64,000 nt of DNA from Phycisphaerales bacterium. Lineage in GTDB: Bacteria > Planctomycetota > Phycisphaerae > WQYP01. How positions within the stretch are numbered: the first letter of the stretch is position 1; every line of letters starts with the position of its first letter. This document shows positions 9,101 through 49,154 of this stretch, piece after piece. The stretch spans positions 64,001 to 128,000 of the forward strand of contig DAIDJN010000058.1 in the NCBI GenBank assembly GCA_027451365.1, written 5' to 3'. A program made the position numbers and the translations under genes. The notes below the pieces were generated by a model, which was not told where the DNA came from, did no database searches, and saw only the letters and a program-made list of their open reading frames with translations.

Positions 9101-12100
9101 AGCTATCTGAATTTTGGCAGTGCCACATTTCAGGGTGTCACGCTGGGCAGCAACCTGCTGGTGAATGGGAATAATTCCACCCTGACGATTAACGGCACAC
9201 TCGCGGTGCCGCAGGGCCTGAATATTGGCGGCTACGCGGTTACCACATCCGGCTCCGCCACCAATATTGTCGTTAACGATGCGGACCAATATCTGTCTAG
9301 CGGGCTTGTTTATTCGGCCCAAATGCTCAATGGCACAATCAATCTGGCCGGGGCCGCCGATACGCTGACGTCCCAAAATAGCCTTACCCTGGCTGGCACA
9401 ATCAACGCGCTGGCCGCTGATAGTTATGACACTATCAGCAACGTTGCTGGCATCTTAACCAATTCCGGCAGCCTGAATGGCGGCTCGGCGACGGTCAGCG
9501 GGACGGCTTTGAATATCGCGGGTTCAGCTTTTGTCAACAGCGGCACCATTACCCAATTCGCGGGCGACACGCTTTCGCTGGGATCAACCGTTTGGTCGAA
9601 TACTGGCACGATCACTGGTACTGGTGTCGGCGGAGGCGGAATCAATTTTGGCGGTCAATTCACTGCAGCCGATATTGGCATTGCCGGCACGGCGGGCGAA
9701 GGAACGTTCAATCCGAACGGTGCCAAAGACGTATTGAATGGTACCATGAATATTCAAGGCGGCACTGCGACATTTGACAGCGCGCATGGCGTATTCATAT
9801 TTACCGGAACAATCGAAAACGGCACGCTGGTAACGCAGGTCATCGGAGGAAACCAGTTACTCCAAATTAACGGCGGGACTTTTCAGAATGTCACGCTGGG
9901 CAGTAATCTGGCGTTGGGTGGTCCGAATGATCCAAATGCCATCACGCTGACAATTGCCAACACCGCGTCTGACGCCGCCGGCCTTGTGCTTAATGGCAAC
10001 ACGGTGAACTTATTGGGAAATAGCGCGACACTGAATTACGTCGATGCCAGCAATGGATCGGATGTGGCACAGTCCATTGATTCCGGTGTCACCAATCTAA
10101 GTGGTAAAGACGCAGCAATCAATACCAATGGAACCCTCACGCTGGAACAGGGCGCGGTTATTAACAGCCTTGCGGGCAACCATGGCGAAAATATCATAAA
10201 TGGCAATTCTTTTGTGAATCAGGGGCTTATCAATGTTGGTTCGCCAACTGTTACCGGTAACACACTGGAGATTCTTGCCGCCGGTTTCACCAACGCCACC
10301 ACCGGCGTTATCACTGTTTACAACGGCAACGATCTGAACATTTCTTCCGCCAATTGGATCAATGATGGCCTGATTCAAACCAGCGGGGCCGCGGGGCTTA
10401 GTTCCGCCGGAGGCGCCAGTCTGACTTTCAACGGTTCGTGGACCAATAATGGCCAGATTAAAGTCACCGCATTTGATGTGGTGAACTTTGGTGGATCGCA
10501 GCAGACAGGTACGGGCACCATCAGTGTCGCCGGGTATACACCGGTTCAGCTAACGAACACGGGTTCGATTGCCATCGGTTCGGCCACGCAAAACGTGTCG
10601 GCGTTCATCAACGCGGCCAATTTCACCAACAGTTCCACCGGCAAGCTCGAGGTGTTCACCGGCAGTGAGTTGCAAATTGGAGACATTTACACCAACAGCA
10701 ATTCCACCAACAGCGGATTGATCGAAACCAGCGCTGCGGCGGGCGATACTTCGGCTTCCGGAGCCACGCTTACGTTTGCCGGCAACTGGAGCAATACCGG
10801 CACAATTGCCGCAACCTATGGCGATACGGTTAATCTGACCGGCACTTTCTCCATGGCCAGTATTGGGTTAAATGGCGGCGGCACGCAGGGTACGTTTACG
10901 CCCGGCGGGGCCAACATCAATCTATACGGGAATATCGATCAGCAGGGCGGTTCCACGTTGAATCTCGGGCAGACGGGGAATCCGGCGCATATCGGCACGC
11001 TGACGATTGAAAAACATGGTGTGTATACGCTGGAAAACGGAGCCACGCTGGCCAATGCGGTTTTAAGTATCGCATCGGGCGGCGGTTCGAGCAGTTATAC
11101 CGGCACAGTAAGCGTCGCTGGCTACGCCAATGCCACATTCCAGAATGTGACAATCGGTTCATTGCCAACAGGTTCCGGCATCGGTCTGTCCAACACCGGG
11201 TCCACGCTTACGGTGGCCAATACCGTGGCAAATCCGATCGGTCTAAATTTGGGCGGGACGAATGTCTCGCTGGGCGGCCAAAACGATGCTTTGGCCTTCC
11301 GCGATGCCAGCAATGGCGGCAGTGATGTAGCCCAAACGCTTGACGACATGACCACGATTACCGGCGCGGGCGACACCATTACCACCAATGGCTTACTGAC
11401 CCTGGCCGGGACGGTAAACGTCATTATTCCTGTTGGAAATAATAAATCCGGCGAAGCCTTTCTTTCCGGTGCCACAATTGTGAACAGCGGCAACATAAAT
11501 GTCGGCTTTGATGGCACCACCTCCAATACCACGGCAAATAATATCCTGGTGATTAACCCCGTCTCATTCACCAATAACTCAACGGGTGTGATTACCGTTT
11601 ACAACTCCAACGTGCTGGATATTGCCGCGACGAACTGGTCCAACGCGGGAACCATTCAAACCGCCGCCGCAATTGGTGATACCCCGGCCGCAGGCTCGGG
11701 CGCGGTTCTGGAATTTAACGGCTCCTGGACCAACACAGGCACTATCCGTTTAACTTCGTTTGATGAAGTGGTTTTTGGTTCAAACCCCGGCGTCGGTTCC
11801 ACGGGAACTATTGGCACGGCAGGGCAAATAGTTCAGGCGTCAAATGCCGGTAAAATTGATGTTGGATCGGCCGGCACCACGGGACTCTATACTCTCATCA
11901 GTACGAATACTTTCACCAACAGTTCAACCGGAAAAATTGAAGTATTCAATGGCAATACCCTGCTGCTGGGTGATCCCTATGGTTATCCGACCACCTGGTC
12001 CAACGCCGGAACCATTGCCAGCGCCACCGCGGCGGGTGACCAAACTGGCGGCGGTGCAACCATTTATTTCTACGGCAATTGGAGCAATAGCGGCAGCATT

Positions 12101-15100
12101 GCGGCCTCGGCCAACGACAGCGTGATCCTTGGTGGAAATTTCACCACAAAGGATATTGGCATGGCCGCGGGGGGCGGCTCATTTACGCCCGGCGGCGCAG
12201 TTGTCACGCTTTCCGGCACCATGAGCCTGCAGGGTGGCGCGGTCAGTTTCGGCGCGGCGCTCGGAGCCATCAATTTGACCGGCACGTTAGAAAACGGGAC
12301 GCTTTCCAGCGGAACGGATACAAATGGCAACGAATATCTTTCGGTCGGAGCTTATTCCTCAGGCACTTTCCAGAATATTACTCTGGGAACAAATTACGCG
12401 CTGGTCAATAACGGTTCAACTTTAAATGTAAACAATTCGCTCGCCAATGGTGTCGGCCTGGACCTGGGTGGAAAAACGCTTACCTTAAGCGGCCAGAATA
12501 CCACGTTGCGGATCAACAATACCCTGACCAATCCCAATACCCTGCAAAACGGCACACTCACCCTCTCGGGTGCCGGCGCACAGCTATACGCGCAAAGCCA
12601 GATGACTTTGGGGGCCACGCTGACACTCAATTCCACTTCCACCGGCGGCAATGGAAATTTCATCAACGGCTTTGGCGTGGTCAACGCGGGCAATATGAAT
12701 GTGGGATATGACTCCAACTCCGGAACCACCGTAACCGGAAACGCCCTGGCTATTTACGCTGGCTTTACCAACGTGGGTACCGTAACGGTTTATGGTGGCA
12801 ACAACCTGTTCATTGGCGAACCAGCCAACCTCAACGGCGCTGGCAATTACGCCAGCACCTGGAGCAATTCGGCAACGATTCAATCCAATGACAGCTTCGG
12901 CGGCACATCTGGAATTACCCTGCAGGGCAATTGGTCCAACACCGGCACCATCGTCGCCAATCCTGGGGATCTGGTTACGCTGGCGGGCATTTTCCATCCA
13001 GCGGATGTCGCCATGGCCAACGATGGCAGCGCGAATGCAACTTTCAATATGAACGGCACAACGACAACCGCCGGCGCGGTGGTGAACATTACCGGTACGC
13101 TGGTGAATTCAGATGCCGGGGCGTCCAGCAGCTCCAATACACTTTATTTCGGTGCCGTCGGCAGCAGCAAATCGTCCACCGGGTCCGGCAACTACACAAG
13201 CAACGGTTCCTGGAACCTGGGTGCCTCCAATGGCAGTGGTGGATATCTGGCCGGAACCATTCAGGGCGGCACAATTTACCCGCAGGATTCCACCGGCGCT
13301 CAATATCTGAATATTATCAACGGAGTATTTCAGAATGTGACGCTTCAAAGCAATCTTAATCTGAATAATGCCAACAGTTCGCTGACCATTTCCAATGCGG
13401 GTTATGTTTCCGGTTCACCCAACAGCAGTACCGGCACGTATGATGGTTTGGTTTTCGCCGGAACGGGGAATTACAGCATTAATATTTCCGGACAGAACGC
13501 CTCTCTGATTTATAGCGACGCTACCTATTCCGGCGGCGGTTCGGTGCCGCAAACCATCGCCAGCGGCAAAATAAACGTCACCGGAACTACCGATACAATT
13601 TCCATTCACAACGGACCGGTGACATTGGCCGCCAATGCCAGCATCAATGTCTATGGCACCGGCACGTATGTGCCGTCCACCAGCGGAAGTGGCTACGACG
13701 GCTCCGGCAACTATAGCGGCTACTATATTCCGCCATCCGCAACCATTAACGGCAGTGGTAGCTTTTCCAATCTTGGAAATATCAATGTCGGTTCCGATGG
13801 TTCCGGCCATAATTATTCCGGCATCAAACTGACCATTGACCCGGCCAATTTCACCAACTTGGGCACCATTACCGTGTTCGGCGGCAGCGGCAACTACGGT
13901 GCCAATACTCTGCAAATCGGCAATGGCAACGATTCCACCACCTGGACCAACAAGGGCACAATTCAAACCAACGATGCGGATCACGGCGGAGCGTTCATCA
14001 CGCTTACCGATAACTGGTCCAACACCGGCTCGATTGTTCTTTCCGGTAGCGACAGAATTGAACTGGGCGGATTCTTCCACCCATCGGATGTAGCCATGGC
14101 CAACAATGGAAGCACCAATGCGACGTTCATCGCCAATGGAGCTGCGGTTAATATCACCGGCACGCTGATCAATTCGGATGGCAACGGCCCGAACACTTTG
14201 AATTTCAATGGGCCGGGAACCAGTGTTTCCGGAACCAGCACCAGCAATGGCACCTGGAATCTGTCTGGTGGAACCATTATTGGCGGCGTTATAAACATCA
14301 ATGCTGAATCAAACGGCAATCCCTATCTGACCATCGGAAGCGGCATGCTGGAAAATGCAACGGTCAACGGAAACCTTAAAGTCGGCGGAATGCTTACTTT
14401 GGCCAACGTCGCTTTAAATGGCAACATCGATCTGTTCGCCGCCGACAGTGGAATATCTATTTTCAACAGCATCGCCAATCCGCAGGGGCTGGTCTCCGCC
14501 AGTCCGTTCACTATTTCCACGGTTTATGGCGGGACCATCAATTTTAATGATGTGACGGACGCCAACGGTAATCCCATTGGCCAGACTCTGGCCAATGCGA
14601 CGATCAATCTGGCCGGACAGACATATTACAGTGCTTTTATTCGTGGCGGAAATGGCACGCTGACGATTGCCAGTTCCACCGTCATTAACGGAGAAGTTGC
14701 CGGGCAGGGCTATTATGGGAATATTACCTATGGCAATGTGGATATGCTTGGCAGCAGCATTGTGAACTATGGTGCCATCAATGCTGGTGTGGGCGTGAGT
14801 TATCAGGGGCTTACGGTCGGATCTTCAATATTTGTCAACCATGGCATTATGACTGTTGAGGGTGGCAACAATCAGTTGGCATTCACAGCCTACGGCCTTC
14901 CTATCAGCTTGATCAATGCCGCGGATGGAACCATTACCGCCAGCGGGTACGGATCAGATATTTTTATCGACGCGAACTGGAGCAACCTGGGCAAAATTGC
15001 ACTTGGTTCCGGCGATACCATTGAACTTGGCGGTACATTCCACCCGGCGGATGTCGGCCTGGCCACGGATCTTCCTTCCGGTACACCGCAGGGTACATTC

Positions 15101-18100
15101 ACGCCCGGCAATGGTACGGTCAATCTTACCGGCACTCTGGTGAACGCAGATGTCGGCGGTAACGGGCCGAATACCTTGGATCTCGTGACTGGCGGAACGC
15201 CCTGGTATTTTGATGGCGGCACCATCAAGGGGGGCATACTGATTGGCGAGGATGCCAGTGGCAATTCCTATCTTTCCCTCAAGCAATCCGGTCAGGGCAC
15301 CCTGCAGAATGTGACGCTGGGAAGCAACCTTAGCTTAGGTGGCAACTCCAGTACCTTGTATATAGCCAATTCGACCGGCGCGGGAAACCAGAATGGCATC
15401 ACCGGAACCGGTCAACAGGTTGTCATTAACGGCAGTTACGAATCCATCAGCTTTTCCGATGCCACAGATGGCGGCGGTAATGCCATTGGTCAGACACTGG
15501 CGGATCTGACCATAGACCTGGCGGGTCAGAATGCCGGTCTTTCTACCGGCACCAGCCTGACGGTCGCTTCCAATGCCACCATCGAAGGTACCGGCTACAA
15601 CTATTCCAACTACTATCAGAACACTATTTCCGGCGGCAGTCTGGCGAACCTGGGCAACATCAATGCCGGTTCGGCCTCTGCCACCGGCTATCTGATTGTT
15701 GAACCCAAAACGTTCACCAATCAGGTGGGCGGAACGATGATTGCATTTAATGGCTCAACCCTGCAAATCGGCAGCGGCGCTTTCGGCACAACCTGGTCCA
15801 ATGCCGGAACCATCACCACGGCCGTGACTGCGGGGTTGCAAACCGCGCCGGGTACAGCTGTTATCACACTTGATGACAACTGGTCGAACACAGGAACAAT
15901 TTCCGCCAGTGCCGGTGACACCATTAACTTTGGTGGAAAATTCCATCCCGCAGATGTCGGTCTTGCGACCGATCTTGGCACCGGGGCCACACAGGGAACG
16001 CTTTCGCCCAGTCAGGCCACGCTGAATCTCACCGGAACGCTGATTAATTCTGATACCGGTCCGACCGGTTCCAATACACTGAATTTCCCGGTTGGGGGAA
16101 ATATCTGGAATATGACCGGTGGCACTGTTCTGGGCGGATCGGTCATCGCGCAGGACAATTCGGGCAACCAATTCCTGAATATAGCGACCGGATCATTCCA
16201 GAATGTGTCGCTGCAAAGTAATCTGGCTCTGACTCCCAATTATTCCAGACTGACTATTCTTAACAGCGCTGGGACGGGTCTGCAAAATGGACTCGTTACC
16301 AGTGGCCAAACCATTACTCTTTCCGGCTATTTGTCTGAATTGGCATTTACCGACGCAACTGATTCACTGGGCAATCCGATTGGCCAGACGCTGGGCAATG
16401 TCACGATTGATTTTACCAATAGCACCACCAGCACCCTGGCCGTTGGCGGAAGTTTGACACTTTCGGGCAACACCGTGGTTAACGCCCTGGCCGGAACCGG
16501 CAACGCCAATGGTGGCGTGATTAACGGCACCACGTTGATCAATGATGGCAGCATGAATGCCGGTTCGGCTGGCGCTGCTGGTTCGTTGGAAATTGTTACA
16601 ACCAACTTCACCAATTCCCAGACCGGTACGCTTACAGCCTACCCCAATTCTGTCCTTCAAATTGAGCCGACTGCATGGTCCAACGCCGGTGTCATTACCG
16701 GTTCAACCGGATCCACCATTGACCTCGGCGGCACATTCCATCCCGCTGATATCGGCCTGGCGACCGACCTTGCCGGCGGAGCCGGCCAGGGAACCTTCAA
16801 TACCAATGGCGCGCAGGTGAATATTCTGGGTACGCTGGTCAATGCGGATGCAGGCGGTACCGGCGTCAATGATCTTGTATTCAATGCGGCCAGCGGTGTT
16901 TATAACTTGGACGGCGGCACCGTTCAGGGTGGTGCCATCAGTATGGCTACGCAGACTTCCGGCCCGGGCGCGGGCGATGGATACCTGGTCTTCAGCGGCG
17001 GTACTCTGCAGAATGTCACTTTGAACAGTGATCTGATCCTGAACAATGCCGGCCAGCCCGCAATTCAGAATATCAGTTCACTGAACATCAACAACACGCT
17101 GGCCAACCAGGTTGGTTTAAACACCAATGGTCACAATATCATTCTTTCCGGCACCAGTGCAGCGCTGACCTTTAATGATGTGGTGAATACCGGCACCTTC
17201 GCAATTGCAGCGCAGACTCTGGCCAATACCACGATCACCCTGTCTGGAGCCAATGCTACCATTACCGGGACACAGGAGCTGAATTTTGCGTCCACGGCAA
17301 TCGTTAATGCCGTGGCCGCGAATAGCGGTAATATTATCAACGGCGCCATTGTCGATACCGGCGCCCGGGTGAATGTCGGCTCGGCAACGCCTACCGCAAC
17401 CACTCTTTATCTGGATCCAACAACGCTGACCAACAGCGGTGTGATTACTGTGTTTAATGGCGACCAACTGGTGTTTGGCCTGTCCAACGGCACATCTGCC
17501 AATAAGACGGGCGGAATCATTCAAACCCAGACCGCCGTAGCCGGTTCCGGTGCAGGTTCGGCGATTCTCACATTCGTTGGTCCGCTGACCAACTCCGGTA
17601 CCATCACCGCGGCCACCGGAGATACCATCAATCTTGAAGGTTCATTTACCGCTGCGGATGTGGGGCTTGCCACCGCAGGCCCGCAGGGAACCTTTACGCC
17701 AAATGGTGCTACAGTGAATTTCACCGGGACGTTGGATAACACTGGCAATGCTCTTCTATTTGGTCCAACGACAGGCGCGTGGAATATGTCTGGCAATGCC
17801 ACGATTATGGGCGGTAGCCTCTCGGCCAATATGCAAAGCTCCGGCCCTGATGCGGGACAACCATTCCTTGTTATTACCGACGGTACTTTTCAGAACGTCA
17901 CAATCAACAGTGATCTGACTGTTTCCGGCAACCTTAGTTTCGCCAGCACTTCCGCCAACACCACCGGCGTGGTGGATAGCGGCCATACCATTAATATTGT
18001 GGCCGCCGGCGGCACGCTGACCTATGTTGAACCGCGTGATCCGTTTTCTGGCCTGGCACCGGCGCAAACCCTGAATTCCACCGTTAATTTGCTGGGTGCT

Positions 18101-18802
18101 GGATCTACCATAAGTGGTTCGGCTGGCACGGCCCTGACATTGGGAACGTCTGCTGTCATCAACGGTCTGGCTGCAAATTCCTCCAATACCTTTACCATGA
18201 CGGCGCTGACCAATAACGGCCAGATTAACGCCGGATCCGCAGCGGTTACGAACAACACCCTTACTGTGAATGTGGTGCAATTTGCCAACAACGGTTCCAT
18301 TACGGCCAATACCGGTTCTGCGGTTAACCTGGTGTTTGACCCGGCCGCATCGTGGACCAACATGGGCACACTTTCTGCGGATGTCGGCGGTACAATTAAT
18401 GTAAAGAACAACGATGGTTCACCCCTGAATCTGATTCTTGGTACCGGCAGTACCATTGATATACAGATTGGTTCAGGAGGTCAGAGTGGATTGATTGACG
18501 TGCTGAATGGTTCGCTCACCATTGATCCGAATGTCACGCTGAATTTAAGTCTGGCACCCGGTGCTGTCGTAAATGGGCCATACACTTTGTTTAATTTCAC
18601 AGGTTTGCTTGGCGATCATTTCGCTACGGTGAATTCCAGTTTTGGAACGGTGTCCTACAACGCCGATTCGATCACTATAAACGGAGCCAGCACGCCGGAA
18701 CCCGCGGCGCTGGCGCTGTTTGCCGGTGGCAGTGCCCTTTTGCTGATCGGTCGGGGCAAACGCCGCAATGCAAAACGCAACCACGTTCGCGTTGCATGTT
18801 AA
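6122..18802 (+). CDS. Giant repetitive PEP-CTERM-sorted surface protein (beta-strand/beta-helix-like adhesin or S-layer-like), ~4226 aa
   Basis: Signal peptide MKSKMVNRLMAAATAAMFGTFLGHTAQA after a GAGGT SD. G/N/T/S-rich body with about 12 repeats marked by WSNTGTI...GDTINLGGxF. C-terminal TPEP + hydrophobic helix + basic tail (RGKRRNAKR) matches a PEP-CTERM sorting signal. Confidence 0.9.
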   Translation: MKSKMVNRLMAAATAAMFGTFLGHTAQANSPTVNNVDWILAGSGNWNAAGTNWSGGIIPNNTSTNVYDVSLDLADGGIYNVTIPSNASYNVDGLTLSNANAALTIAANGILDISQPDNNGASGTLSVQQGDFTLNGTLANSVLSVGVGGTFSSNSGTFENVVLGSNLSVGSYQALNVTDSLNNSYGLNAAGELITLNVGAGLVFTDTFDPKFNRFVPNILNGTMDMTGYNNYLTAQNGPTELAGTVNVLAANGTEYMNGNGLLWNNGYINVGSNGTIADAVSGSTLYINASAFNNTGNITVFNSSTLNATAFTNSGTVATAASAGIQTGTGSAIMDFKGDWSNTGTIEAAAGDTINLGGAFNPQDIGLSTMAGVTNGAFSPDGATVNISGTINNTGNNLNFAAVIGPWNLNGAVITDGTLTVQNGAGAQDIKILNASVQNTKLGSNLIIQNNGYSGGLTVNNTVANPLGLDFNGYNITLAGSYASLTFNATYDRVFAAYVPESVNGIINLAAYQSQLNGNQIAIFNSAINSYSTSGTNYIGGGTITNAGVVRVGSDGTLGNTVTGDTLTINSNNFTNAASGTIAVYNGDILNFNSYGGTTNAGLITTAGAATLQSGTASATINFSDGWSNTGTIRATAGDTINLGGTFNAADIGIAGATGQGAFTPNGATVNLSGTMNIQGGVATFDAAHGLINLGGGTFENGTVVAQNNTGTQYLAISSGTFQNITLGSNLSVAGSLYLTGTTENTNELNFNGYAVTLTGSGSVLNPYDVSVNGVYVPEVLSGTINLAGNNSSVNAYQGPLTLAGTLNALAPGNFNFIGGYSGPVTNTGLIYVGSAAIGGNAISGAALTVRPTFINAGTMTAFNSDFLNLNSNTWSNSGVIQTGVAAGLQAGPGSATLNIGGAGGNWSNSGRIVAAAGDTINLGGTFNAADIGIAGTAGEGTFAPNGATVNLTGTMNIQGGTATFDAAHGQMTLSSATIENGTLVSQDSRGNSYLNFGSATFQGVTLGSNLLVNGNNSTLTINGTLAVPQGLNIGGYAVTTSGSATNIVVNDADQYLSSGLVYSAQMLNGTINLAGAADTLTSQNSLTLAGTINALAADSYDTISNVAGILTNSGSLNGGSATVSGTALNIAGSAFVNSGTITQFAGDTLSLGSTVWSNTGTITGTGVGGGGINFGGQFTAADIGIAGTAGEGTFNPNGAKDVLNGTMNIQGGTATFDSAHGVFIFTGTIENGTLVTQVIGGNQLLQINGGTFQNVTLGSNLALGGPNDPNAITLTIANTASDAAGLVLNGNTVNLLGNSATLNYVDASNGSDVAQSIDSGVTNLSGKDAAINTNGTLTLEQGAVINSLAGNHGENIINGNSFVNQGLINVGSPTVTGNTLEILAAGFTNATTGVITVYNGNDLNISSANWINDGLIQTSGAAGLSSAGGASLTFNGSWTNNGQIKVTAFDVVNFGGSQQTGTGTISVAGYTPVQLTNTGSIAIGSATQNVSAFINAANFTNSSTGKLEVFTGSELQIGDIYTNSNSTNSGLIETSAAAGDTSASGATLTFAGNWSNTGTIAATYGDTVNLTGTFSMASIGLNGGGTQGTFTPGGANINLYGNIDQQGGSTLNLGQTGNPAHIGTLTIEKHGVYTLENGATLANAVLSIASGGGSSSYTGTVSVAGYANATFQNVTIGSLPTGSGIGLSNTGSTLTVANTVANPIGLNLGGTNVSLGGQNDALAFRDASNGGSDVAQTLDDMTTITGAGDTITTNGLLTLAGTVNVIIPVGNNKSGEAFLSGATIVNSGNINVGFDGTTSNTTANNILVINPVSFTNNSTGVITVYNSNVLDIAATNWSNAGTIQTAAAIGDTPAAGSGAVLEFNGSWTNTGTIRLTSFDEVVFGSNPGVGSTGTIGTAGQIVQASNAGKIDVGSAGTTGLYTLISTNTFTNSSTGKIEVFNGNTLLLGDPYGYPTTWSNAGTIASATAAGDQTGGGATIYFYGNWSNSGSIAASANDSVILGGNFTTKDIGMAAGGGSFTPGGAVVTLSGTMSLQGGAVSFGAALGAINLTGTLENGTLSSGTDTNGNEYLSVGAYSSGTFQNITLGTNYALVNNGSTLNVNNSLANGVGLDLGGKTLTLSGQNTTLRINNTLTNPNTLQNGTLTLSGAGAQLYAQSQMTLGATLTLNSTSTGGNGNFINGFGVVNAGNMNVGYDSNSGTTVTGNALAIYAGFTNVGTVTVYGGNNLFIGEPANLNGAGNYASTWSNSATIQSNDSFGGTSGITLQGNWSNTGTIVANPGDLVTLAGIFHPADVAMANDGSANATFNMNGTTTTAGAVVNITGTLVNSDAGASSSSNTLYFGAVGSSKSSTGSGNYTSNGSWNLGASNGSGGYLAGTIQGGTIYPQDSTGAQYLNIINGVFQNVTLQSNLNLNNANSSLTISNAGYVSGSPNSSTGTYDGLVFAGTGNYSINISGQNASLIYSDATYSGGGSVPQTIASGKINVTGTTDTISIHNGPVTLAANASINVYGTGTYVPSTSGSGYDGSGNYSGYYIPPSATINGSGSFSNLGNINVGSDGSGHNYSGIKLTIDPANFTNLGTITVFGGSGNYGANTLQIGNGNDSTTWTNKGTIQTNDADHGGAFITLTDNWSNTGSIVLSGSDRIELGGFFHPSDVAMANNGSTNATFIANGAAVNITGTLINSDGNGPNTLNFNGPGTSVSGTSTSNGTWNLSGGTIIGGVININAESNGNPYLTIGSGMLENATVNGNLKVGGMLTLANVALNGNIDLFAADSGISIFNSIANPQGLVSASPFTISTVYGGTINFNDVTDANGNPIGQTLANATINLAGQTYYSAFIRGGNGTLTIASSTVINGEVAGQGYYGNITYGNVDMLGSSIVNYGAINAGVGVSYQGLTVGSSIFVNHGIMTVEGGNNQLAFTAYGLPISLINAADGTITASGYGSDIFIDANWSNLGKIALGSGDTIELGGTFHPADVGLATDLPSGTPQGTFTPGNGTVNLTGTLVNADVGGNGPNTLDLVTGGTPWYFDGGTIKGGILIGEDASGNSYLSLKQSGQGTLQNVTLGSNLSLGGNSSTLYIANSTGAGNQNGITGTGQQVVINGSYESISFSDATDGGGNAIGQTLADLTIDLAGQNAGLSTGTSLTVASNATIEGTGYNYSNYYQNTISGGSLANLGNINAGSASATGYLIVEPKTFTNQVGGTMIAFNGSTLQIGSGAFGTTWSNAGTITTAVTAGLQTAPGTAVITLDDNWSNTGTISASAGDTINFGGKFHPADVGLATDLGTGATQGTLSPSQATLNLTGTLINSDTGPTGSNTLNFPVGGNIWNMTGGTVLGGSVIAQDNSGNQFLNIATGSFQNVSLQSNLALTPNYSRLTILNSAGTGLQNGLVTSGQTITLSGYLSELAFTDATDSLGNPIGQTLGNVTIDFTNSTTSTLAVGGSLTLSGNTVVNALAGTGNANGGVINGTTLINDGSMNAGSAGAAGSLEIVTTNFTNSQTGTLTAYPNSVLQIEPTAWSNAGVITGSTGSTIDLGGTFHPADIGLATDLAGGAGQGTFNTNGAQVNILGTLVNADAGGTGVNDLVFNAASGVYNLDGGTVQGGAISMATQTSGPGAGDGYLVFSGGTLQNVTLNSDLILNNAGQPAIQNISSLNINNTLANQVGLNTNGHNIILSGTSAALTFNDVVNTGTFAIAAQTLANTTITLSGANATITGTQELNFASTAIVNAVAANSGNIINGAIVDTGARVNVGSATPTATTLYLDPTTLTNSGVITVFNGDQLVFGLSNGTSANKTGGIIQTQTAVAGSGAGSAILTFVGPLTNSGTITAATGDTINLEGSFTAADVGLATAGPQGTFTPNGATVNFTGTLDNTGNALLFGPTTGAWNMSGNATIMGGSLSANMQSSGPDAGQPFLVITDGTFQNVTINSDLTVSGNLSFASTSANTTGVVDSGHTINIVAAGGTLTYVEPRDPFSGLAPAQTLNSTVNLLGAGSTISGSAGTALTLGTSAVINGLAANSSNTFTMTALTNNGQINAGSAAVTNNTLTVNVVQFANNGSITANTGSAVNLVFDPAASWTNMGTLSADVGGTINVKNNDGSPLNLILGTGSTIDIQIGSGGQSGLIDVLNGSLTIDPNVTLNLSLAPGAVVNGPYTLFNFTGLLGDHFATVNSSFGTVSYNADSITINGASTPEPAALALFAGGSALLLIGRGKRRNAKRNHVRVAC

Positions 18803-21390: not shown

Positions 21391-21431
21391 TGCCACACCC
21401 AACACAATGAGGCCGCTGGGGATCGAACCCA
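21391..21431. repeat. Left att site (duplicate of the tRNA-Lys 3' end plus 17 nt of downstream sequence)
   Basis: TGCCACACCCAACACAATGAGGCCGCTGGGGATCGAACCCA, identical to 30073-30113. Confidence 0.96.
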
Positions 21432-21598
21432 CCACTCCCATAGCCTTATCATCGGGAAATACGCAAGGTTCCAAAGTTAGTGAGCCATCTGTGATACCAT
21501 TTGACCCGGATTTAGACGCCATAATCAAGTCATGGCCGACCCTGCCTGAACCGATCAGGCTGGCCATTGCGGCATTGGCCGGGACTGGTGCGAAATGA
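21407..21598 (+). other. Stranded C-terminal segment of the integrase (IntC), in frame with the integrase across the att core
   Basis: Begins MRPLGIEP, the same peptide as integrase residues 436-443, at the same offset (16 nt) in the repeat. Continues for 55 aa to ...DPDLDAIIKSWPTLPEPIRLAIAALAGTGAK. Confidence 0.75.
21490..21501 (+). repeat. Candidate integrase arm-type site (TGTGATACCATT)
   Basis: Same 12-mer as the tandem pair at 29936-29959; lies about 60 bp inside the left att. Confidence 0.7.
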
Positions 21599-21792
21599 GC
21601 AATACCAATTTACAAATTCGCAATGCCGACGATTTACGAAAATACTTCGCAAATGCGGACCCGAAAGACGTGGCGGCACTTTGGGAGGTTATTCGGGCTT
21701 GGCCGGCAATGCCGCCAGGTGTTAAGAAAGCGATTTTGTCGATTACATTGATTGATTGGGAGGCCGCGCGCAAGCTGGCGGCTAAAAAATAG
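21595..21792 (+). CDS. Small protein resembling the IntC tail (W-P-x-[LM]-P helical motif)
   Basis: 65 aa; ATGA overlap with the IntC stop. ALWEVIRAWPAMPPGVKKAILSI aligns by eye to DLDAIIKSWPTLPEPIRLAIAAL. Confidence 0.7.
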   Translation: MSNTNLQIRNADDLRKYFANADPKDVAALWEVIRAWPAMPPGVKKAILSITLIDWEAARKLAAKK

Positions 21793-21853
21793 GATCAAAT
21801 ATCGCGTTGCCACCGGCGATAACAGGTGGCATATCCGTGTTGGAGTGTTTTTT

Positions 21854-22084
21854 ATGGTTGCCAATGTTGAAAACTTTCTGCGAGCGGTTAAGCGTAACGG
21901 CTTTATGCTTTCGCCCGTGGTGCCGGGGTTGGCCAGCTTATCGCCGGTTGGATGGAAATGTGAGCCAGGCGATTTTTGCGTCCCTTATGTGATGGTGCGG
22001 CCAGCCGACCTTAAAACGCCAGAAGCTGTCATTCGCAAAATCCAATCCCGTTTTGCGAATCGCGAGGCATTAACCGCCGCGTGA
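21854..22084 (+). CDS. Hypothetical protein (76 aa)
   Basis: GGAG SD upstream of the ATG at 21854; co-oriented with neighbours and followed by a terminator-like hairpin. Confidence 0.55.
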   Translation: MVANVENFLRAVKRNGFMLSPVVPGLASLSPVGWKCEPGDFCVPYVMVRPADLKTPEAVIRKIQSRFANREALTAA

Positions 22085-22177: not shown

Positions 22178-23104
22178 GTGAAGATTATTGGTGTAACGAT
22201 TGGTACAGGCGGCCAGTTTCCGGCGATGGCGGAATTGGCCGCAAAGCGGTTTGAGGCCGCAACCGGCCTTGAATGCCGGCTCTTAAAACCATCCGACTAT
22301 TTCCCGCGGGCAGGAAAACTTGAATCAATGTTAGCTCGCTATAAGACGTTTGAAGCGTTTCCTGACGCGGATGCCGTGGTCTACTTTGACGCCGATCTGG
22401 CCTTTGTCCGCAAATGGAACCCTGTTGAATTGTTTGCCGCAGAAAGTCGGCTGATGATGGTTGTTGACGGACATTGGGACGGTCTTGAGGCTGAAGCAAG
22501 AAAACTTGGGATGCCCTTGACGGACTACCATAACGCGGGCTTTCACCTGGCCAACCGTGAACATCACGCGGAATTGTTCCACCGGTTTTTGAAATGGTTT
22601 AATGAAATTCCCCGAATGGAATACGGCGATCAATCCGCGTTTAATCTTTTCCTGCAAATGACGGGCACGCCAGTTGCAGATTTGCCGGCAACGTATAATT
22701 TTTTTGCCCATGAATGGCCGAACGCGAAAGAGCAAATTGACCCGATGGGGGTTATTGGATGGCATTGCGCGGCGAATGAAAAGCCTTTATTCCTTGAAAT
22801 CGCTTCTTTGGGTGTAAGAGAGTGTTTTAAGCCGGATCCGGTCCCGGACGGTCTATGCAATCGCCGTTTTTGGTACAACTACGGCGGCGCATCTGACCGC
22901 ATCATGGTATTAAGCCCTGACGGGCGAATTGTCCATGGATGGGGCGGCTACGAGATGTTTTGGTGGATGAAAAATGGTGATCTGTTATTCTCTAACCATA
23001 AACGAAAAACGTGCAGTTTCGTTCGAGTAGGCGATGGATGGGCGGGCCACTGGTTGGTGGATTCCCTCCCGGCGTGCACACTAAAACCAGTCTTGCTGCC
23101 ATAA
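22178..23104 (+). CDS. Glycosyltransferase, GT-A fold (GT8-like), cargo gene
   Basis: VVYFDADL (DxD), YHNAGF and DQSAFN motifs typical of GT8, plus an extra C-terminal aromatic-rich domain. Confidence 0.75.
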   Translation: MKIIGVTIGTGGQFPAMAELAAKRFEAATGLECRLLKPSDYFPRAGKLESMLARYKTFEAFPDADAVVYFDADLAFVRKWNPVELFAAESRLMMVVDGHWDGLEAEARKLGMPLTDYHNAGFHLANREHHAELFHRFLKWFNEIPRMEYGDQSAFNLFLQMTGTPVADLPATYNFFAHEWPNAKEQIDPMGVIGWHCAANEKPLFLEIASLGVRECFKPDPVPDGLCNRRFWYNYGGASDRIMVLSPDGRIVHGWGGYEMFWWMKNGDLLFSNHKRKTCSFVRVGDGWAGHWLVDSLPACTLKPVLLP

Positions 23105-23114
23105 GGTGGTGCGA

Positions 23115-23768
23115 CTACCTTGAAACTTCAACCGTGAGGAAACCTGAATCGTTGGCGAGATTGCCGGTGTAGTTATACATTTGCATTTTAAGCCTGCCGT
23201 CTTGGCTTGCCCGCAGGTGTGCGTAGTCGCCTATTTTGAAGGGTTTGCCGTTTCCGATCTTGCCCTCAAGGTAGCCGTGAAAAATATGGTTCACAGGATC
23301 ATTCAATCCATCTGGTCCGCAGGCATACCGCAGATGCTTTCCCCAGGTGCTCCAACGTCCGCTGGCGCTGATCGTCACTGATTCGCCTTTCCGCAGGGAA
23401 ATTGTGGTCTGCCAGTTTTTTGTAGCATAGATGCGAAACTTCAATCCGTGAGCGATTTGGGGTTGTACGGCCGCGATCCATTTCTGTATCAGTACTGCGT
23501 CTTTCAAATTTCCGCGTTGCATGACGTGTTTTTCCGCAATCTTGAGCCGCGCGACTTCCTGGCGACGGGCCGCTGCGACGGCATCCTGATATTTCTGGCG
23601 GGCCACGCGGATCGCGATCCGGGCACGATTGATCGCGGCTAAAGCCGTGATGGAATTTGGCAATGGAAGCGGTGGCGGATTAACGGGCGATGTCCAGGCA
23701 TTCAGTATGGACGACAGGCAAACAACCGTGGTGAGTGAAACAACAACAACAATTCGAGCAAACTTCAT
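23115..23768 (-). CDS. Exported protein with coiled segment and C-terminal LecA/PA-IL-like lectin domain
   Basis: AAGGAG SD and signal peptide. C-terminal pattern W..T.I.L.KGE.V.I.ASG.W...GPDG...G.L.GKIG.G.PF.IG...DG.L...N..G...V.V resembles PA-IL-like beta-sandwiches. Confidence 0.6.
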   Translation of the reverse strand: MKFARIVVVVSLTTVVCLSSILNAWTSPVNPPPLPLPNSITALAAINRARIAIRVARQKYQDAVAAARRQEVARLKIAEKHVMQRGNLKDAVLIQKWIAAVQPQIAHGLKFRIYATKNWQTTISLRKGESVTISASGRWSTWGKHLRYACGPDGLNDPVNHIFHGYLEGKIGNGKPFKIGDYAHLRASQDGRLKMQMYNYTGNLANDSGFLTVEVSR

Positions 23769-23885
23769 GACTGGTTCTCCTTGATTCGCAGAATTCGCAC
23801 TGGCTAAAACCAATCGTATCACGCGCGGGCGCCGCGTGCAAAAGCGTTAAGGGCCGTGCGAAGCTAATTTTTGCGATATATAGGT

Positions 23886-24098: not shown

Positions 24099-24213
24099 AA
24101 CCAAGTCTAAAAACGCGCATGCGCGATTCTGCGATTGAATAGCGATTAACCAATGTAAGCCAACGCACAGTGCCTTGAATCGGCACCGCTGGCTTGTTTT
24201 GGAGAATCGAACC

Positions 24214-24414
24214 ATGGAACGCGAGGAACAGCCCGAACTTCAAACGCTTCTGACCCTTGAGCAATCCGCACAGGTCTTGCAGGTAAGCCTGCGGACGATT
24301 TGGAAGCTGATCTCTACGGGCGAACTCCCCAAGCCGTTGCGGATCGGCCATAGCCGCCGATTCCGGCGTGCCGATCTGGAAAACTATATTGAGACCCTTA
24401 CCGCGGCGCGTTGA
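24214..24414 (+). CDS. Excisionase/AlpA-like winged-HTH protein
   Basis: LLTLEQSAQVLQVSLRTIWKLISTGELPKPLRIGHSRRFRRADLENYI; GGAG SD before ATG 24214. Confidence 0.85.
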   Translation: MEREEQPELQTLLTLEQSAQVLQVSLRTIWKLISTGELPKPLRIGHSRRFRRADLENYIETLTAAR

Positions 24415-24475
24415 TTATTCTAAAAAAATAGGCCGTTGGCATCCGACAAAAAACACCAACGGCCATAAAAATCCG

Positions 24476-24664
24476 GAGGCCGCGAAGTTATGCGGTATCG
24501 GCCGCACACTTTTTTTGGGCCTCGTTTCAAGCGGACGCGCACCGGCACCTATCCGGCTGGGCGGTAAACGCTGCGTCTGGCGAAAACAGGAGCTATCGGC
24601 CTGGGTGGCTGCCGGATGCCCGACGCGGGACGAGTTTAAAAAACTGCAAAGTCTGAAAAAGTGA
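24476..24664 (+). pseudogene. Second AlpA-family HTH, apparently lacking its N-terminus/start codon
   Basis: EAAKLCGIGRTLFLGLVSSGRAPAPIRLGGKRCVWRKQELSAWVAAGCP is AlpA-like. The only in-frame start is a GTG at 24368 inside the previous gene, and it would read through a hairpin region. Confidence 0.5.
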
Positions 24665-24725: not shown

Positions 24726-26783
24726 ATGATACACATTCCTAATGCCACACACAAGTTGAAGGAATCGCTTTGTCTGATTCCGACCGAACTCAAAGAAATT
24801 CAGCAATGGGTTATGTGGCGAATAGTTGACGGGCGAAAAATTCCGTTCACCACCACCGGGCGCTCCGCTTCCTCAACCAAACCTAAAACGTGGGCCAGTT
24901 TTGATGCCGCGATTGCCTCCTATCGGTCTGGCGGATTTGCGGGCATTGGCTTTGTCTTTGCAAAGGATGATCCGTACTGCGGTATCGACCTTGACCATTG
25001 TATAAAACCGGATGGCACACTTGAAGCGTGGGCCGCGAAGATCATTCAAGACTTCGCAAGTTATGCGGAGGTGTCACCAAGTGGTACCGGCGTAAAGATT
25101 TTTATTCGTGGTAAGAAGCCCAGTGCTAAATGCCGCTTCGAGATTAACAAGGCCACCGGCCAGCATATCGAGATTTACGACAGTGGCCGGTATTTCACGG
25201 TCACGGGAAATCGCTGGGCGGATTGCCCATTGGTTATTTCCGATCGGCAACCGAAGCTTAATACTCTGTTCGCAGAATACTTTTCAGGGCAAGCGCCGCC
25301 AGTAACAAAGCCAGAATTACCACCCCTTACTGAGCATGTGAAAAATAATGCTTCCACACATGAGCGGTGCCACAGGTACTTGGACACGATTCCGGGGGCC
25401 ATTTCCGGGCAAGGTGGCCACAACCGGACATTGGAGGCCGCGGCAACATGCTTTCGTTTTGGGCTGTCCGAAAGCGACGCATGGAATCTACTGACCGAAT
25501 TCAATGAACGATGCCAACCCCCATGGAATGAAAGGGAACTCCGCCACAAGTTGGCTGACGGCGAAAAGCTTGTACGGGGCGCCGGCGAATTTGGAAAATT
25601 GCTAGATGGGCGGTCCGAACCAGTAGCCGCGGCACCGAGGCCCACAACGGCGGCGCCCGCAGCGGTTCCGAAAGCTCCCGCGTTGAAGTTTCTGGACGTT
25701 GCGAATTGCCGAAATTATTCCAAACCACAGGCGTGGGCGTTCAAGGGATGGATCCCATCGGGCCTTGTCACGGTTCTGGGCGCCCATGGCGGCACGGGAA
25801 AAAGCATGTTCAGCCTGATCGCGGCTATTTGCTTGGCGGCTGGTCATGAATTCCTTGGCCAACAATGTGAGCCAATAAAGGCGTGCTACTTCTCCGCTGA
25901 AGATGGTCCGGATATTCTTTATCCAAGGATGGCCGCGATCTGCGACGCCCTGGATGAAGACCCCGCAACGCTGGCTGACCGCCTGACGGTCATTGACGCC
26001 GAAAGCAACCCAGTCCTATTTGAGGAAGTCACAACCGGCAAAAGCGCGATGATCACCACGCCGACCTATGCGGCTCTGCTGGAACACATTCAGCAAACCG
26101 GCTGCAAGTTTGTGATCATTGACGGCGCTTCCGACACTTATGATGGTGAGGAAAACGCACGCCGGCAGGTGCGGGCATACATGCGAAGCCTGCGGATTCT
26201 GGCACAGGCAACAAATGCTGCAATCGTCCTACTGGCACACGTCCCAAAGACCAACACACGCGGCCAAAGCACGGAAAGTTATTCCGGTTCAACCGCCTGG
26301 CACAACAGCGCCCGGTCAAGGCTGGCGCTGGTTGTGGATGAATTTGCGCCCGGGATAATTGAACTCCGGCACGAAAAATGCAACGTGGGAAAACTTCAAT
26401 CCGCATTTCAATTCAAGTTTTCAGATAGCGGCATTTTATTACCGGTTGGCCAGTCCGGCGAGGTTAATTCCAACGCCGACAAACAGGCGATATTAAGAAT
26501 AATCATGGAATTTAACGCCCGCGGAGAGACCCTTTACGCCTCGACCGCGTGTGCGCAGAACGCATTCAAGGCAATGGCTGGCGAGCCTGGATTTCCAAAG
26601 AAAATGCGCAAGCCAGCATTCGATAGCCTGATGCGGTCCATGGCGAGAGAGGGTCTTATTCAAATAGAACAAATTCAAACCAAACAGCGGCGATTTGTGG
26701 ACGGATGGCGAATCGCAGAACTGGGTATTGCCGCGATAAATGTAGACCTTGCCACCGGCGAAGTTTTGGAGTCGCAGCCATGA
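24726..26783 (+). CDS. Primase-polymerase (NrS-1-like PrimPol) fused to PriCT-like region and RecA-type/AAA_25 helicase
   Basis: QWVMW, GIGFVF...GIDLDHC, EVSPSGTG and IEIYDSGRYFTVTG in the PrimPol domain; CQPPW..REL; Walker A GAHGGTGKS; Walker B FVIIDG; LLAH and GSTAW motifs. Confidence 0.88.
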   Translation: MIHIPNATHKLKESLCLIPTELKEIQQWVMWRIVDGRKIPFTTTGRSASSTKPKTWASFDAAIASYRSGGFAGIGFVFAKDDPYCGIDLDHCIKPDGTLEAWAAKIIQDFASYAEVSPSGTGVKIFIRGKKPSAKCRFEINKATGQHIEIYDSGRYFTVTGNRWADCPLVISDRQPKLNTLFAEYFSGQAPPVTKPELPPLTEHVKNNASTHERCHRYLDTIPGAISGQGGHNRTLEAAATCFRFGLSESDAWNLLTEFNERCQPPWNERELRHKLADGEKLVRGAGEFGKLLDGRSEPVAAAPRPTTAAPAAVPKAPALKFLDVANCRNYSKPQAWAFKGWIPSGLVTVLGAHGGTGKSMFSLIAAICLAAGHEFLGQQCEPIKACYFSAEDGPDILYPRMAAICDALDEDPATLADRLTVIDAESNPVLFEEVTTGKSAMITTPTYAALLEHIQQTGCKFVIIDGASDTYDGEENARRQVRAYMRSLRILAQATNAAIVLLAHVPKTNTRGQSTESYSGSTAWHNSARSRLALVVDEFAPGIIELRHEKCNVGKLQSAFQFKFSDSGILLPVGQSGEVNSNADKQAILRIIMEFNARGETLYASTACAQNAFKAMAGEPGFPKKMRKPAFDSLMRSMAREGLIQIEQIQTKQRRFVDGWRIAELGIAAINVDLATGEVLESQP

Positions 26784-28354: not shown

Positions 28355-28572
28355 TATTATTCCGGTGCACCAAATGCCGCCAACGATTGCATGATGCGGT
28401 CTGGTACTTTTGCCGGGACTGCCAACGGTCATTGTGTGGATGGTGTGCATACACGATTGACGGGCCGCGTGGTGAGACTGCATTTTGCGAAAACTGCTGC
28501 CGGCGATTGGTGGATAACCTGACCAGTGAATTAAACCGCCGCGAGGAACTTGACAAAGCGGCCGCAGTGTAG
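28351..28572 (+). CDS. Small Cys-rich zinc-finger protein
   Basis: Four CxxC pairs (CTKC, CRDC, CGWC, CENC); ATGA overlap with the upstream gene. Confidence 0.6.
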   Translation: MILFRCTKCRQRLHDAVWYFCRDCQRSLCGWCAYTIDGPRGETAFCENCCRRLVDNLTSELNRREELDKAAAV

Positions 28573-28578
28573 GATAAT
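28550..28578 (+). promoter_or_regulatory. Sigma70-type promoter for the HTH-integrase operon
   Basis: TTGACA-N17-GATAAT, with 7 nt between the -10 hexamer and the ATG at 28586. Confidence 0.6.
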
Positions 28579-28585
28579 AAACTAT

Positions 28586-28780
28586 ATGAAAAACATTGAA
28601 CAGGTTTTGAAGCAGGCAATAAAGGATACCGGCCTGACGCATTATGCCATTTCCAAAGCCACTGGCGTACAAGCCCGGTCACTGGATCGGTTCATGGATG
28701 GAACCCAAAGCCTGCGGCTGGATAAGGCCGCACTGCTGGCAATGCACCTGAATCTTGAACTTAAACGCAAAGGACGGTGA
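28586..28780 (+). CDS. XRE/Cro-like HTH regulator (64 aa)
   Basis: LKQAIKDTGLTHYAISKATGVQARSLDRFMDG...LRLDKAALLA. Confidence 0.8.
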   Translation: MKNIEQVLKQAIKDTGLTHYAISKATGVQARSLDRFMDGTQSLRLDKAALLAMHLNLELKRKGR

Positions 28781-28783
28781 ACC

Positions 28784-30151
28784 ATGCCAAACGTATTCAA
28801 AAGGCGTATCTGGATTGATGCCAATGGCGTCCAGTGTTCCAAAACAACACCGGGGGCCAAGGCTAAGATTTTACCTGACTGGTATTTCCGTGTGATGACT
28901 TCAACGGGCCGCAAACTTGTGCGAGGATATTCTGACAAGGGCGCGACTGTCGCCAAACTCAATGATATGGTCAAACGCGAGGCCCGTGGTGAACAGGGGC
29001 TTGTCAATCCATTTGAATCGCACAATAAAGCACCGCTGTTGGATCACGTCCGGCAGTATGTTGCCGAACTGGCCGCCACGGGCCATGACACGGCCAATAA
29101 CCGCATTGTGGAACTGCGGCTTAATAAAATGGTGTCCGCGTGCGGCTGGAACAGGTTGGTGGATGTTTCCGCGGCAACATTCAGTAAGTTTCGGGACACG
29201 GGCGACATGCTTAAAGCCGCGCCAAAGACCCGCAATGATTATCACCAGACAGCGCGTCAATTCTGCCGCTGGTGTGTTCGCAATGGCCGGATGGCTATTG
29301 ACCCGTTTCAAAGTCTGGCCACCGTCAAAAGCAATGGCGACGTTCGCCGGCAACGCCGGGCAATGACTGATCAGGAAGTCCAGCGACTGCTGACCGTGGC
29401 ACCAGAGCCGCGTAGAACCGTTTACCAAACCGCGCTGCTGACCGGCTTACGCCGTGCCGAACTTGGCCAGTTGCGGCTTGATGATATTCACCTTGACGCA
29501 CCAAAGCCGTTCCTGACAGCCAGAGCCAGCACCACCAAAAACGGCAAGGCTGCGGTTATCTTCCTCCGCGACGATCTTGTTTCAGCCTTGCGACGGTTGC
29601 CGGCACGGACAGATGGGCTGCTGTTCCGCGTTCCAAAAATTGAGACGTTCTATAACGATTTGCGGGCCGCTGGGATTGACCGGACAGACAGCAAGGGCCG
29701 GATACTTGATTTTCACTCCATTCGGCATACGCTTGCGACCAACCTTGGCCGGGCTGGCGTGTCCATCAGAACCGCAATGGAAGTGATGCGGCATTCCGAT
29801 GCCCGCCTGACCACTAAGACCTATACCGATGCCAGCCAGTTGCCCACCATAGACGCGATTGAGTCTTTGCCACGTTGGGAAGTCCATCAGCAGGTGCAGC
29901 AAGCCGTTGCCACCGGCACGGATGGCCAAAAAGTTTGTGATACCATTTGTGATACCATTTACCCCGCACAGTTAGGCGTTTGTACGCATTCAGACGCACG
30001 GTTGACAGTAAATGCCACTGATGACCAAACCACTGTAATACAAGGGGAAAACCTGCAAAACAAGCTGTTTCCTGCCACACCCAACACAATGAGGCCGCTG
30101 GGGATCGAACCCAGGACCCACAGATTAAAAGTCTGTTGCTCTACCAGCTGA
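28784..30151 (+). CDS. int: Tyrosine recombinase/integrase, reading through the att core and ending antisense inside tRNA-Lys
   Basis: Catalytic residues TGLRRAEL (R), TKNGK (K), FHSIRHT (HxxR), MRHSD (H) and KTYTD (Y). Confidence 0.95.
   Translation: MPNVFKRRIWIDANGVQCSKTTPGAKAKILPDWYFRVMTSTGRKLVRGYSDKGATVAKLNDMVKREARGEQGLVNPFESHNKAPLLDHVRQYVAELAATGHDTANNRIVELRLNKMVSACGWNRLVDVSAATFSKFRDTGDMLKAAPKTRNDYHQTARQFCRWCVRNGRMAIDPFQSLATVKSNGDVRRQRRAMTDQEVQRLLTVAPEPRRTVYQTALLTGLRRAELGQLRLDDIHLDAPKPFLTARASTTKNGKAAVIFLRDDLVSALRRLPARTDGLLFRVPKIETFYNDLRAAGIDRTDSKGRILDFHSIRHTLATNLGRAGVSIRTAMEVMRHSDARLTTKTYTDASQLPTIDAIESLPRWEVHQQVQQAVATGTDGQKVCDTICDTIYPAQLGVCTHSDARLTVNATDDQTTVIQGENLQNKLFPATPNTMRPLGIEPRTHRLKVCCSTS
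29936..29959 (+). repeat. Tandem candidate arm-type sites (TGTGATACCATT x2)
   Basis: Exact tandem 12-mer inside the integrase 3' region; a third copy lies at 21490. Confidence 0.7.
30073..30113. repeat. Right att site overlapping the tRNA-Lys 3' half
   Basis: 41-bp identity with 21391-21431. Confidence 0.96.
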
Positions 30152-30162
30152 GCTACGGCCTC
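30090..30162 (-). tRNA. tRNA-Lys (UUU), CCA not encoded
   Basis: GAGGCCG acceptor stem, anticodon arm ACAGA-CTTTTAA-TCTGT, T-loop GGTTCGATCC; 73 nt. Confidence 0.97.
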
Positions 30163-30205
30163 AGAGATTGGGGCACCCGATTGAATTCCCAATCGAGAGC
30201 AACGT

Positions 30206-49081: not shown

Positions 49082-49154
49082 GGGGACGTAGCTCAATTGG
49101 GAGAGCACTGCCTTTGCAAGGCAGGGGTTGCCGGTTCGATCCCGGTCGTCTCCA
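49082..49154 (+). tRNA. tRNA-Ala (UGC), CCA not encoded
   Basis: GGGGACG/CGTCTCC stem with G3:U70, anticodon arm CTGCC-TTTGCAA-GGCAG, T-loop GGTTCGATCC. Confidence 0.97.

Follow-up and report, generated by a model that had tools for sequence, protein, structure and literature searches.

Introduction

Integrase genes that extend across their own attachment site attP are known from Mx8 and SSV (PMC4383910). In Mx8, integration replaces 112 residues of the protein by 13 and leaves a less active product, and serine integrases of some streptococcal ICEs behave likewise (PMC4701971). In archaeal elements with suicidal integrases, such as SSV1, pTN3 and pT26-2, the att site is also located inside int and integration splits the gene into the parts IntN and IntC (PMC8371274), upon which the catalytic half of the enzyme is lost (PMC8371274, PMC5861418). 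In the mycobacteriophage BPs, it is the repressor gene rep that contains attP, and the piece removed from its product is a degradation tag (PMC3694055). Finally, SinI provides an example of a small free protein that has conserved residues in common with the region through which a larger one, SinR, oligomerises. Each of the two contributes a pair of helices, which hook together as a four-helix bundle, and SinR is inactivated (PMC3163267).

Here, we have analysed a mobile element contained in a window of 64,000 nucleotides from the genome of a Phycisphaerales bacterium, where an integrase with a swapped C-terminus is accompanied by a small protein carrying a diverged copy of the same segment. 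The original prediction had not recognised this pairing as a described system, and our own search of the mostly open-access literature agrees in that it found no description of either the tail family or of free copies of the tail.

Results

An integrase with an attP-dependent C-terminus

The element spans 8.7 kb in a tRNA-Lys gene and is bounded by 50-nt direct repeats at both ends (repeat D1, 21391-21440 and 30073-30122, + strand), which are 92% identical and do not differ in their first 41 nt. Its left att junction constitutes a displaced 3' fragment of tRNA-Lys(TTT), and the right junction lies within the integrase gene, where it overlaps the intact tRNA-Lys(TTT) on the minus strand (30089-30163, identified by ARAGORN), which is the target of integration. 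The integrase of the integrated form (28784-30151, +) comprises 455 residues and is assigned as a tyrosine (phage) integrase by its match to PF00589 (E 1.1e-18; 68.1 bits at a cut-off of 27.1) and by the presence of the residues R...H-x-x-R...H/W...Y. The catalytic motifs are found between residues 221 and 347 and all precede the att core, which begins at residue 430 of 455, and the final 20 residues are read from the antisense strand of the tRNA gene. Upon joining at the core, a tail of 63 codons encoded at the opposite end of the element (21407-21598, +) connects in frame at residue 435, which results in a protein of 498 residues in the excised form compared to 455 in the integrated form. 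Both lengths had been proposed in the original prediction and proved right, with a frame that is continuous over the core. As this core is part of the integrase gene, the tail-bearing enzyme is, with near certainty, encoded by the excised circle only. In a structure model, the tail consists of a disordered linker followed by two helices (tail residues 34-45 and 48-58), which make up a motif at residues 34-58 (about 21506-21580, +). Within the linker, a repeat (D12, 21485-21508, +) has an 11-nt core that the integrase gene contains twice more, at 29936 and 29948, and, judged from the sequence, it is a candidate arm-type integrase site. The complete relatives mostly have a second repeat of 17-26 nt that resembles this candidate (25 of the 30).

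No head or tail genes were recognised in the element, a small satellite-like island. Behind the tail follow ORF65, which is discussed below, an open reading frame of 110 codons (21752-22084, +) without match in scans of Pfam, NCBIfam and PHROGs, and a cargo gene for a family 8 glycosyltransferase (22178-23104, +; PF01501, E 2.8e-09). Beside the latter, a cargo gene on the opposite strand (23115-23822, -; 235 residues) shows a weak PA-IL-like lectin match, which at E 0.0063 is under the cut-off. Two Xis/AlpA-like HTH genes (24175-24414 and 24368-24664, +; PF12728 with E 5.4e-13 and 1.1e-04, PF05930 with E 0.0038) are candidates for ordinary directionality factors, and the presence of a primase-helicase (24726-26783, +; PF13481, E 8.5e-33; PHROGs primase, E 3e-47) implies that the excised circle replicates. 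Directly 5' of the integrase, we find a small XRE-like HTH gene (28586-28780, +; PF20317, E 1.5e-04, under the curated cut-off) and, upstream of both, a sigma-70-like promoter (28550-28578, +) called solely from its 11/12 consensus match. A scan of the + strand between 21200 and 22300 for such consensus matches detected none like the site at 28550. With a promoter at this position and none found ahead of the tail, transcription would run from the HTH and integrase genes through attP into the tail and ORF65, so that latter two would be made together, and from the circle only.

Elsewhere in the window, positions 6068-18802 (+) encode a Gly/Asn/Thr-rich repeat protein of 4,244 residues, whose C-terminus we take to resemble a PEP-CTERM sorting signal, and a second tRNA gene, for Ala (TGC), is located at 49082-49154 (+).

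A conserved helical tail in Planctomycetota

Searches with the tail of the window as query returned matches in 22 of 41 related genomes. Of 251 genomes of the class, 180 had matches to an alignment of 23 motif rows, as had 10,862 representatives of clusters at 50% identity (E up to 0.001). Among the matches listed for one query, 50 of the 53 labelled loci belong to Planctomycetota, two to Verrucomicrobiota and one to Gemmatimonadaceae, and in the ESM Atlas a family member leads to unnamed clusters only, which are mostly from Planctomycetota. Viral contigs contained a single tail-motif locus, and a tblastn search of 50,697 phage records with the family member P0007 gave no match. The tail is equally without match in Pfam, NCBIfam and PHROGs. 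When 23 motif copies were compared to Pfam, matches were weak and scattered (at best 2 of the 23 to PF13940, at E 0.063), and among PDB sequences the best E of 1.7 does not qualify as a match. Fold searches, with no Foldseek match and a best VIA Z-score of 2.3, are uninformative for a helical pair of such short length.

The genomic surroundings of the motif were analysed in 140 of the listed top matches and in six earlier loci. An exact antisense T-loop pattern is located 107-293 nt 5' of the motif in 65 of the 140 loci with sufficient upstream DNA, compared to 8 of 240 control windows. Since this pattern occurs in all three frames (28, 27 and 10 cases), the peptide read from the att core is not conserved. 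The fetched DNA of 34 loci includes an integrase on the same strand (35 frames). The att core resides inside the integrase in 30 of these frames and in all 30 of them it is in frame with the tail with no intervening stop; four others lack the repeat, and in the remaining one it is located past the gene and not in frame. Among proteins of at least 166 residues, 178 of 8,000 scored candidates match the motif, and the 120 long matches listed include 52 PF00589 integrases in which 0-23 residues separate the motif from the C-terminus. Such fusions in sequence databases indicate that the attP form is present in natural assemblies.

The conservation is manifested in the protein. For the first, second and third codon positions of 145 tails, we obtain entropies of 1.10, 0.76 and 1.57, a result that selection by a protein profile favours, and all four proline and six leucine codons are in use at conserved sites. 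On account of this synonymous codon spread across the 145 tails, we reject a role of the motif as DNA-level signal. Hydrophobic residues account for 97-100% at motif positions -7, -4, -3, 0, +3, +7, +11, +14 and +15, and the hairpin is found on two deeply separated integrase clades with many tRNA targets. The attP-dependent tail that had been proposed for the window, where it is in frame, has thus become recognisable as a conserved two-helix module, whose frame is restored in each of the 30 relatives.

As the many fixed hydrophobic positions have only two helices to bury them, their pattern points to pairing. We thus envisage the tail as a flexible linker ending in an amphipathic helix-turn-helix hairpin, which is present on the integrase in the excised circle only and would act as a self-association hook, in that two hairpins combine into a four-helix bundle and strengthen the integrative complex. 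Integration would strip the hook and turn the integrase into a weaker enzyme that depends on Xis, comparable to phage Mx8. Instead of pairing with itself, the hairpin might dock on a host factor, the integrase body or Xis, and a free copy might compete for this partner or promote assembly. We consider this quite unlikely. Its retention on both integrase clades irrespective of the tRNA target speaks in its favour, and its near confinement to Planctomycetota among the labelled loci of the matches listed would fit a host-specific partner. A helper also has a precedent in SNJ2, whose Orf2 and Orf3 are co-transcribed with the integrase and raise integration (PMC8371274). What stands against it is the near-symmetric hydrophobic pattern of the two helices, which, to extrapolate from SinR and SinI, is typical of self-pairing hooks.

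Even less probable, to an extent that we regard it as very remote, is a role of the tail as degradation tag of the attP-form integrase, with ORF65 as decoy of the protease. The idea draws on the tags of Rep and Int in BPs, where attP lies inside rep and integration removes a C-terminal tag (PMC3694055), and on the location of the motif at the C-terminus. Conservation, however, sits in the internal hairpin and not in the terminal residues, and the motif is internal or N-terminal in ORF65 and in the HTH fusions described below. Tags of the ssrA type have conserved small hydrophobic residues at their terminus and end in -AA. Among 144 tails, a single one ends in AA and none in LAA, VAA or AAA, with K, R or E at the end of 63, and a tag of this type can thus be dismissed.

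We also reject that orphan tails are translated alone from an in-frame ATG, as 59 of 142 loci contain such a codon compared to 65 and 32 in the other frames. At the stop, ATGA is generally enriched and is found in 37 of 131 tails, corresponding to 37 of the 83 TGA stops compared to 14.8% A at third positions, and the partner genes beginning there are unrelated. The ATGA coupling is thus not special to the pair of tail and ORF65; it is a sign of an operon running from the integrase through attP and generic among tails. The first genes coupled to tails in the loci L063-L202 fall into several small unrelated groups, some of which presumably resemble HNH nucleases or terminase small subunits. In three host-type database proteins (P0158, P0163 and P0176), which by their Pfam accessions comprise a histidine kinase, a sigma-54 ATPase and a substrate-binding protein, the motif is at most 40 residues away from the C-terminal end. 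Such proteins probably result where the frame of a host gene continues across an att junction into an orphan tail.

The source genome contains four tails in all. A second complete element of the same design (C60:3042-9400) has a tRNA-Ala as target and an 86-nt repeat about 6.1 kb apart; its integrase, which is close to one in the genome G019, reads into the core and its tail is located at the far end. Two further motif-bearing tails (C18:2664-2942 and C57:8504-8968), for which no integrase was found nearby and the second of which is preceded by a tRNA-antisense-like stretch, are probably junction remnants. Near-identical weak matches of 29 codons and 13 bits (C63:133022-133108 and C68:27090-27176) are part of a duplicated stretch with no att context and likely due to chance.

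ORF65, a free copy of the tail motif

ORF65 (21595-21792, +) encodes a free protein of 65 residues, whose start overlaps the stop of the tail on the same strand (ATGA, 21595-21598) and which contains a diverged copy of the motif at residues 27-50. The original prediction had named both peptides and the overlap, which are found as described, and had proposed the motif copy, which is weak but above chance. While 7 of 24 residues are identical to the motif of its own tail, ORF65 and the tail align with a Smith-Waterman score of 47, which 8 of 10,000 shuffled versions of ORF65 attain as well. A profile was constructed from 20 tails and two free copies of G027, in total 22 motif copies and all of them from genomes other than that of the window; its seeds were found using the tail of the window, but no sequence of the window is contained in it. 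This profile assigns 55 bits to the tail of the window and 17.7 bits to ORF65, which is placed fifth among 112,138 frames of the six-frame translated genome, behind the four att tails, at E 0.017. With a second profile from 147 database representatives, ORF65 obtains 16.7 bits, and none of 20,000 shuffles reaches its score (best 14.2 bits). It is thus highly likely that the motifs of ORF65 and the tail are homologous. The copy retains the hydrophobic pattern of the tail, with a Met where 143 of 145 tails have a Leu and a Ser where 128 of 145 have an Ala.

We then considered whether this copy is a relic without function, left from an old duplication of the tail or from a tail captured from another element. 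Such debris does exist: frameshifted, partial or start-less duplicates are found near tails (L102, L120, L158, L168, L204 and L210), tandem motifs are present in the database proteins P0005, P0006, P0016, P0017 and P0094, and the broken or start-less copies in L102, L120, L168 and L210 demonstrate that tail duplication occurs without function. The orphan nature of ORF65 detailed below and the change of two near-invariant positions would be in line with decay. Conversely, in simulations of neutral decay to the identity of ORF65, which assume its own tail as donor, none of 5,000 runs reached 15 bits. The frame of 65 codons is intact and has a gene-like codon score of 0.062, compared to values between -0.04 and -0.68 for the five alternative frames, no tRNA fragment is found upstream, and counterparts with ribosome binding sites exist in the genomes G007 and G024. 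We also reject a recent copy of its own tail, with which the DNA is identical at 33 of 72 positions and thus no closer than with other tails (median 35; 42 of 72 for the closest of 145). In light of these properties the copy looks selected, we hold with good confidence that ORF65 is a real protein, and a relic appears improbable.

Despite its gene-like features, ORF65 is an orphan as far as the databases reveal, for which no full-length relatives were found. Among 41 related genomes there are no orthologues but three weak matches, each with a stop; a word-indexed protein search returned a single candidate, ORF65 itself; of 322 pattern matches in metagenome contigs none was confirmed; and neither Pfam, NCBIfam and PHROGs nor the ESM Atlas (best 0.77) provided a match or lead. 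A fold search, in which the best VIA Z-score was 4.3 and viral matches under E 2.5 were absent, is uninformative for a short helical protein. In the closest element, whose integrase is 68% identical over 349 residues, the tail is present and followed by a different first gene, with no ORF65. The absence of matches to families in Pfam, NCBIfam and PHROGs has led us to reject a Xis-like winged-helix or HTH factor, and with two Xis/AlpA-like HTH genes and arm-like repeats, the element does not require ORF65 as directionality factor.

A model of ORF65, built with relatives of the tail, shows three helices, with extra helices before and after the motif. The predicted complex between tail residues 30-63 (alignment of 104) and ORF65 (alignment of 55) scored 0.30 against a mark of 0.32, with controls left unfolded, and argues neither for binding nor against it. 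We rate binding of ORF65 to the tail at slightly below an even chance, and a net inhibitory effect of the protein as possible but doubtful.

Recurrence of free motif copies

Downstream DNA was available for 131 top-scoring tails, 84 of which are followed by a first open reading frame, and one of these 84 frames carries the motif. This gene, in G027, overlaps the stop of the tail by ATGA and encodes a protein of 131 residues with three motif copies in a row, for which a search of 401 genomes of the phylum, run without positive control, found no match at E 1e-6. No intact free copy was found in 54 further tail loci. From the full match lists of 96 genomes of three families (295 matches at thresholds of E 0.05-0.3), pairs on the same strand and within 600 nt were picked by eye, which resulted in six pairs of tail and motif, composed of four intact free proteins and two defective copies, a partial one of 23 codons in G011 and a frameshifted one in G132. 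The intact copies, in 4 of the 96 genomes, include besides ORF65 and the protein of G027 the product of the first gene behind the tail in G024 (66 residues, GGAGG site) and of the second gene in G007 (64 residues, GAGGTG site). Of the 24 motif residues, they share 4-5 among one another, and each has 3-7 in common with its own tail. Outside the motif, they are mutually unrelated, and those of G027, G024 and G007 are not recent copies of their own tails. The proposed pairing of tail and free copy has thus held in that free copies recur, but not as a fixed system. The free copy behind the tail is an optional accessory, recurrent but uncommon, which several elements would have gained separately.

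Free motifs also occur away from tails. A protein of 133 residues with an N-terminal motif and a weak HTH match is encoded mid-element in 3 of 301 genomes, and one more mid-element free motif protein is found in G194. The motif-plus-HTH genes (L069:6878-7276, L076:3067-3465, L258 and L260) are located 3' of replication genes and show ribosome-site-like words. In a quick tree of 43 integrases, which leaves out that of G007, the five elements with stand-alone copies sit at five separate places; shuffling of the five labelled rows likewise gives about five changes, and the tree thus shows scatter and not a dated history.

These observations bear on a further explanation, in which ORF65 is real but its hairpin serves as its own self-association module in a task unrelated to the integrase, as is probably the case in the motif-plus-HTH proteins. 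Their fusion and mid-element position away from att, the free copy of G194, the low similarity of free copies to each other and to their tails, and the extra helices on either side of the motif in ORF65 are all consistent with such domain reuse. It is opposed by the position of the four free copies as first or second gene behind the tail, where they would be co-transcribed with the tail-bearing integrase, and by the fact that three of the four contain little beyond the motif, with one of these three consisting of three motifs in a row. On balance, we regard domain reuse as unlikely, though less so than docking on a third partner.

Discussion

The reading that we tentatively prefer, drawn by analogy to SinI and SinR, is that of an oligomerisation hook present in the attP form only, which becomes titrated as the circle produces a free, SinI-like copy; we view it as plausible but short of probable. 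ORF65 would pair with the tail and cap the hook, and the capping would damp re-integration and give the circle time to replicate. Alternatively, ORF65 might damp tail-bearing integrases that belong to rival elements within one cell. Several observations count against a decoy, including the rarity of the pairing (4 of 96 genomes, 1 of 84 first frames), the absence of full-length relatives of ORF65 and of the gene itself in the closest element, its Met and Ser at two nearly fixed positions of the motif, and the motif at the head of a mid-element HTH-like protein, where it is used without need of an integrase. In its most general form, the proposal would extend to a phylum-wide helical hook capped by separately evolved free copies, either single, triple or fused to a DNA-binding domain, as a dominant-negative control of directionality that is based on mimicry, coupled to the state of the element and perhaps exerted across rival elements. 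This generalisation we consider rather unlikely.

The tail family by itself is a defined module of 25 residues, of which thousands of natural variants exist and which 180 of the 251 genomes from the class contain. It accounts for many short 'hypothetical proteins' in the annotation of Planctomycetota as orphaned integrase tails. Should the free copies bind the tail, they would be natural peptide inhibitors of a tyrosine integrase and control its directionality by mimicry. Otherwise, what remains is the tail family as an unannotated domain, with the free copy reduced to a side note. Tail swapping itself is already known from Mx8, and it is the tail family and its free copies for which we found no description in the mostly open-access literature.

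In comparison with described systems, the element has the location of att inside int in common with archaeal suicidal integrases. There, the catalytic domain belongs to IntC and neither half is thought to be active, whereas here the catalytic motifs are all N-terminal of the core and the equivalent of IntC is a short accessory tail. As the displaced part contains no catalytic domain, we have rejected an assignment to this type. With BPs, the element has in common that integration rewrites the C-terminus of a protein since attP lies in a gene; in BPs, this concerns a repressor and its tag, and here an integrase whose tail ends are not tag-like. The likeness to SinI is found in a small protein, ORF65, that has a two-helix motif in common with a larger one, whose oligomerisation by the tail would be the counterpart of that in SinR. 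It extends to the logic alone, with a recombinase as putative target, and searches for homology to SinI or SinR gave no match in Pfam or PDB sequences and none in fold searches (best Z-scores of 2.3 for the tail and 4.3 for ORF65). Judged by two features apparent in the DNA, a core within int and a longer in-frame C-terminus upon excision, the element is of the Mx8-type layout. Both have attP in the 3' portion of int and exchange the C-terminus upon integration into a tRNA gene, with the catalytic domain kept whole; 112 residues are replaced by 13 in Mx8 and 63 by 20 here. The element differs from Mx8 in being a small satellite-like island and in its tail, which ends in a conserved hairpin common to thousands of elements of Planctomycetota. 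Finally, whereas the passages on Mx8 cited here mention no free copy of the tail, such a copy is present here.
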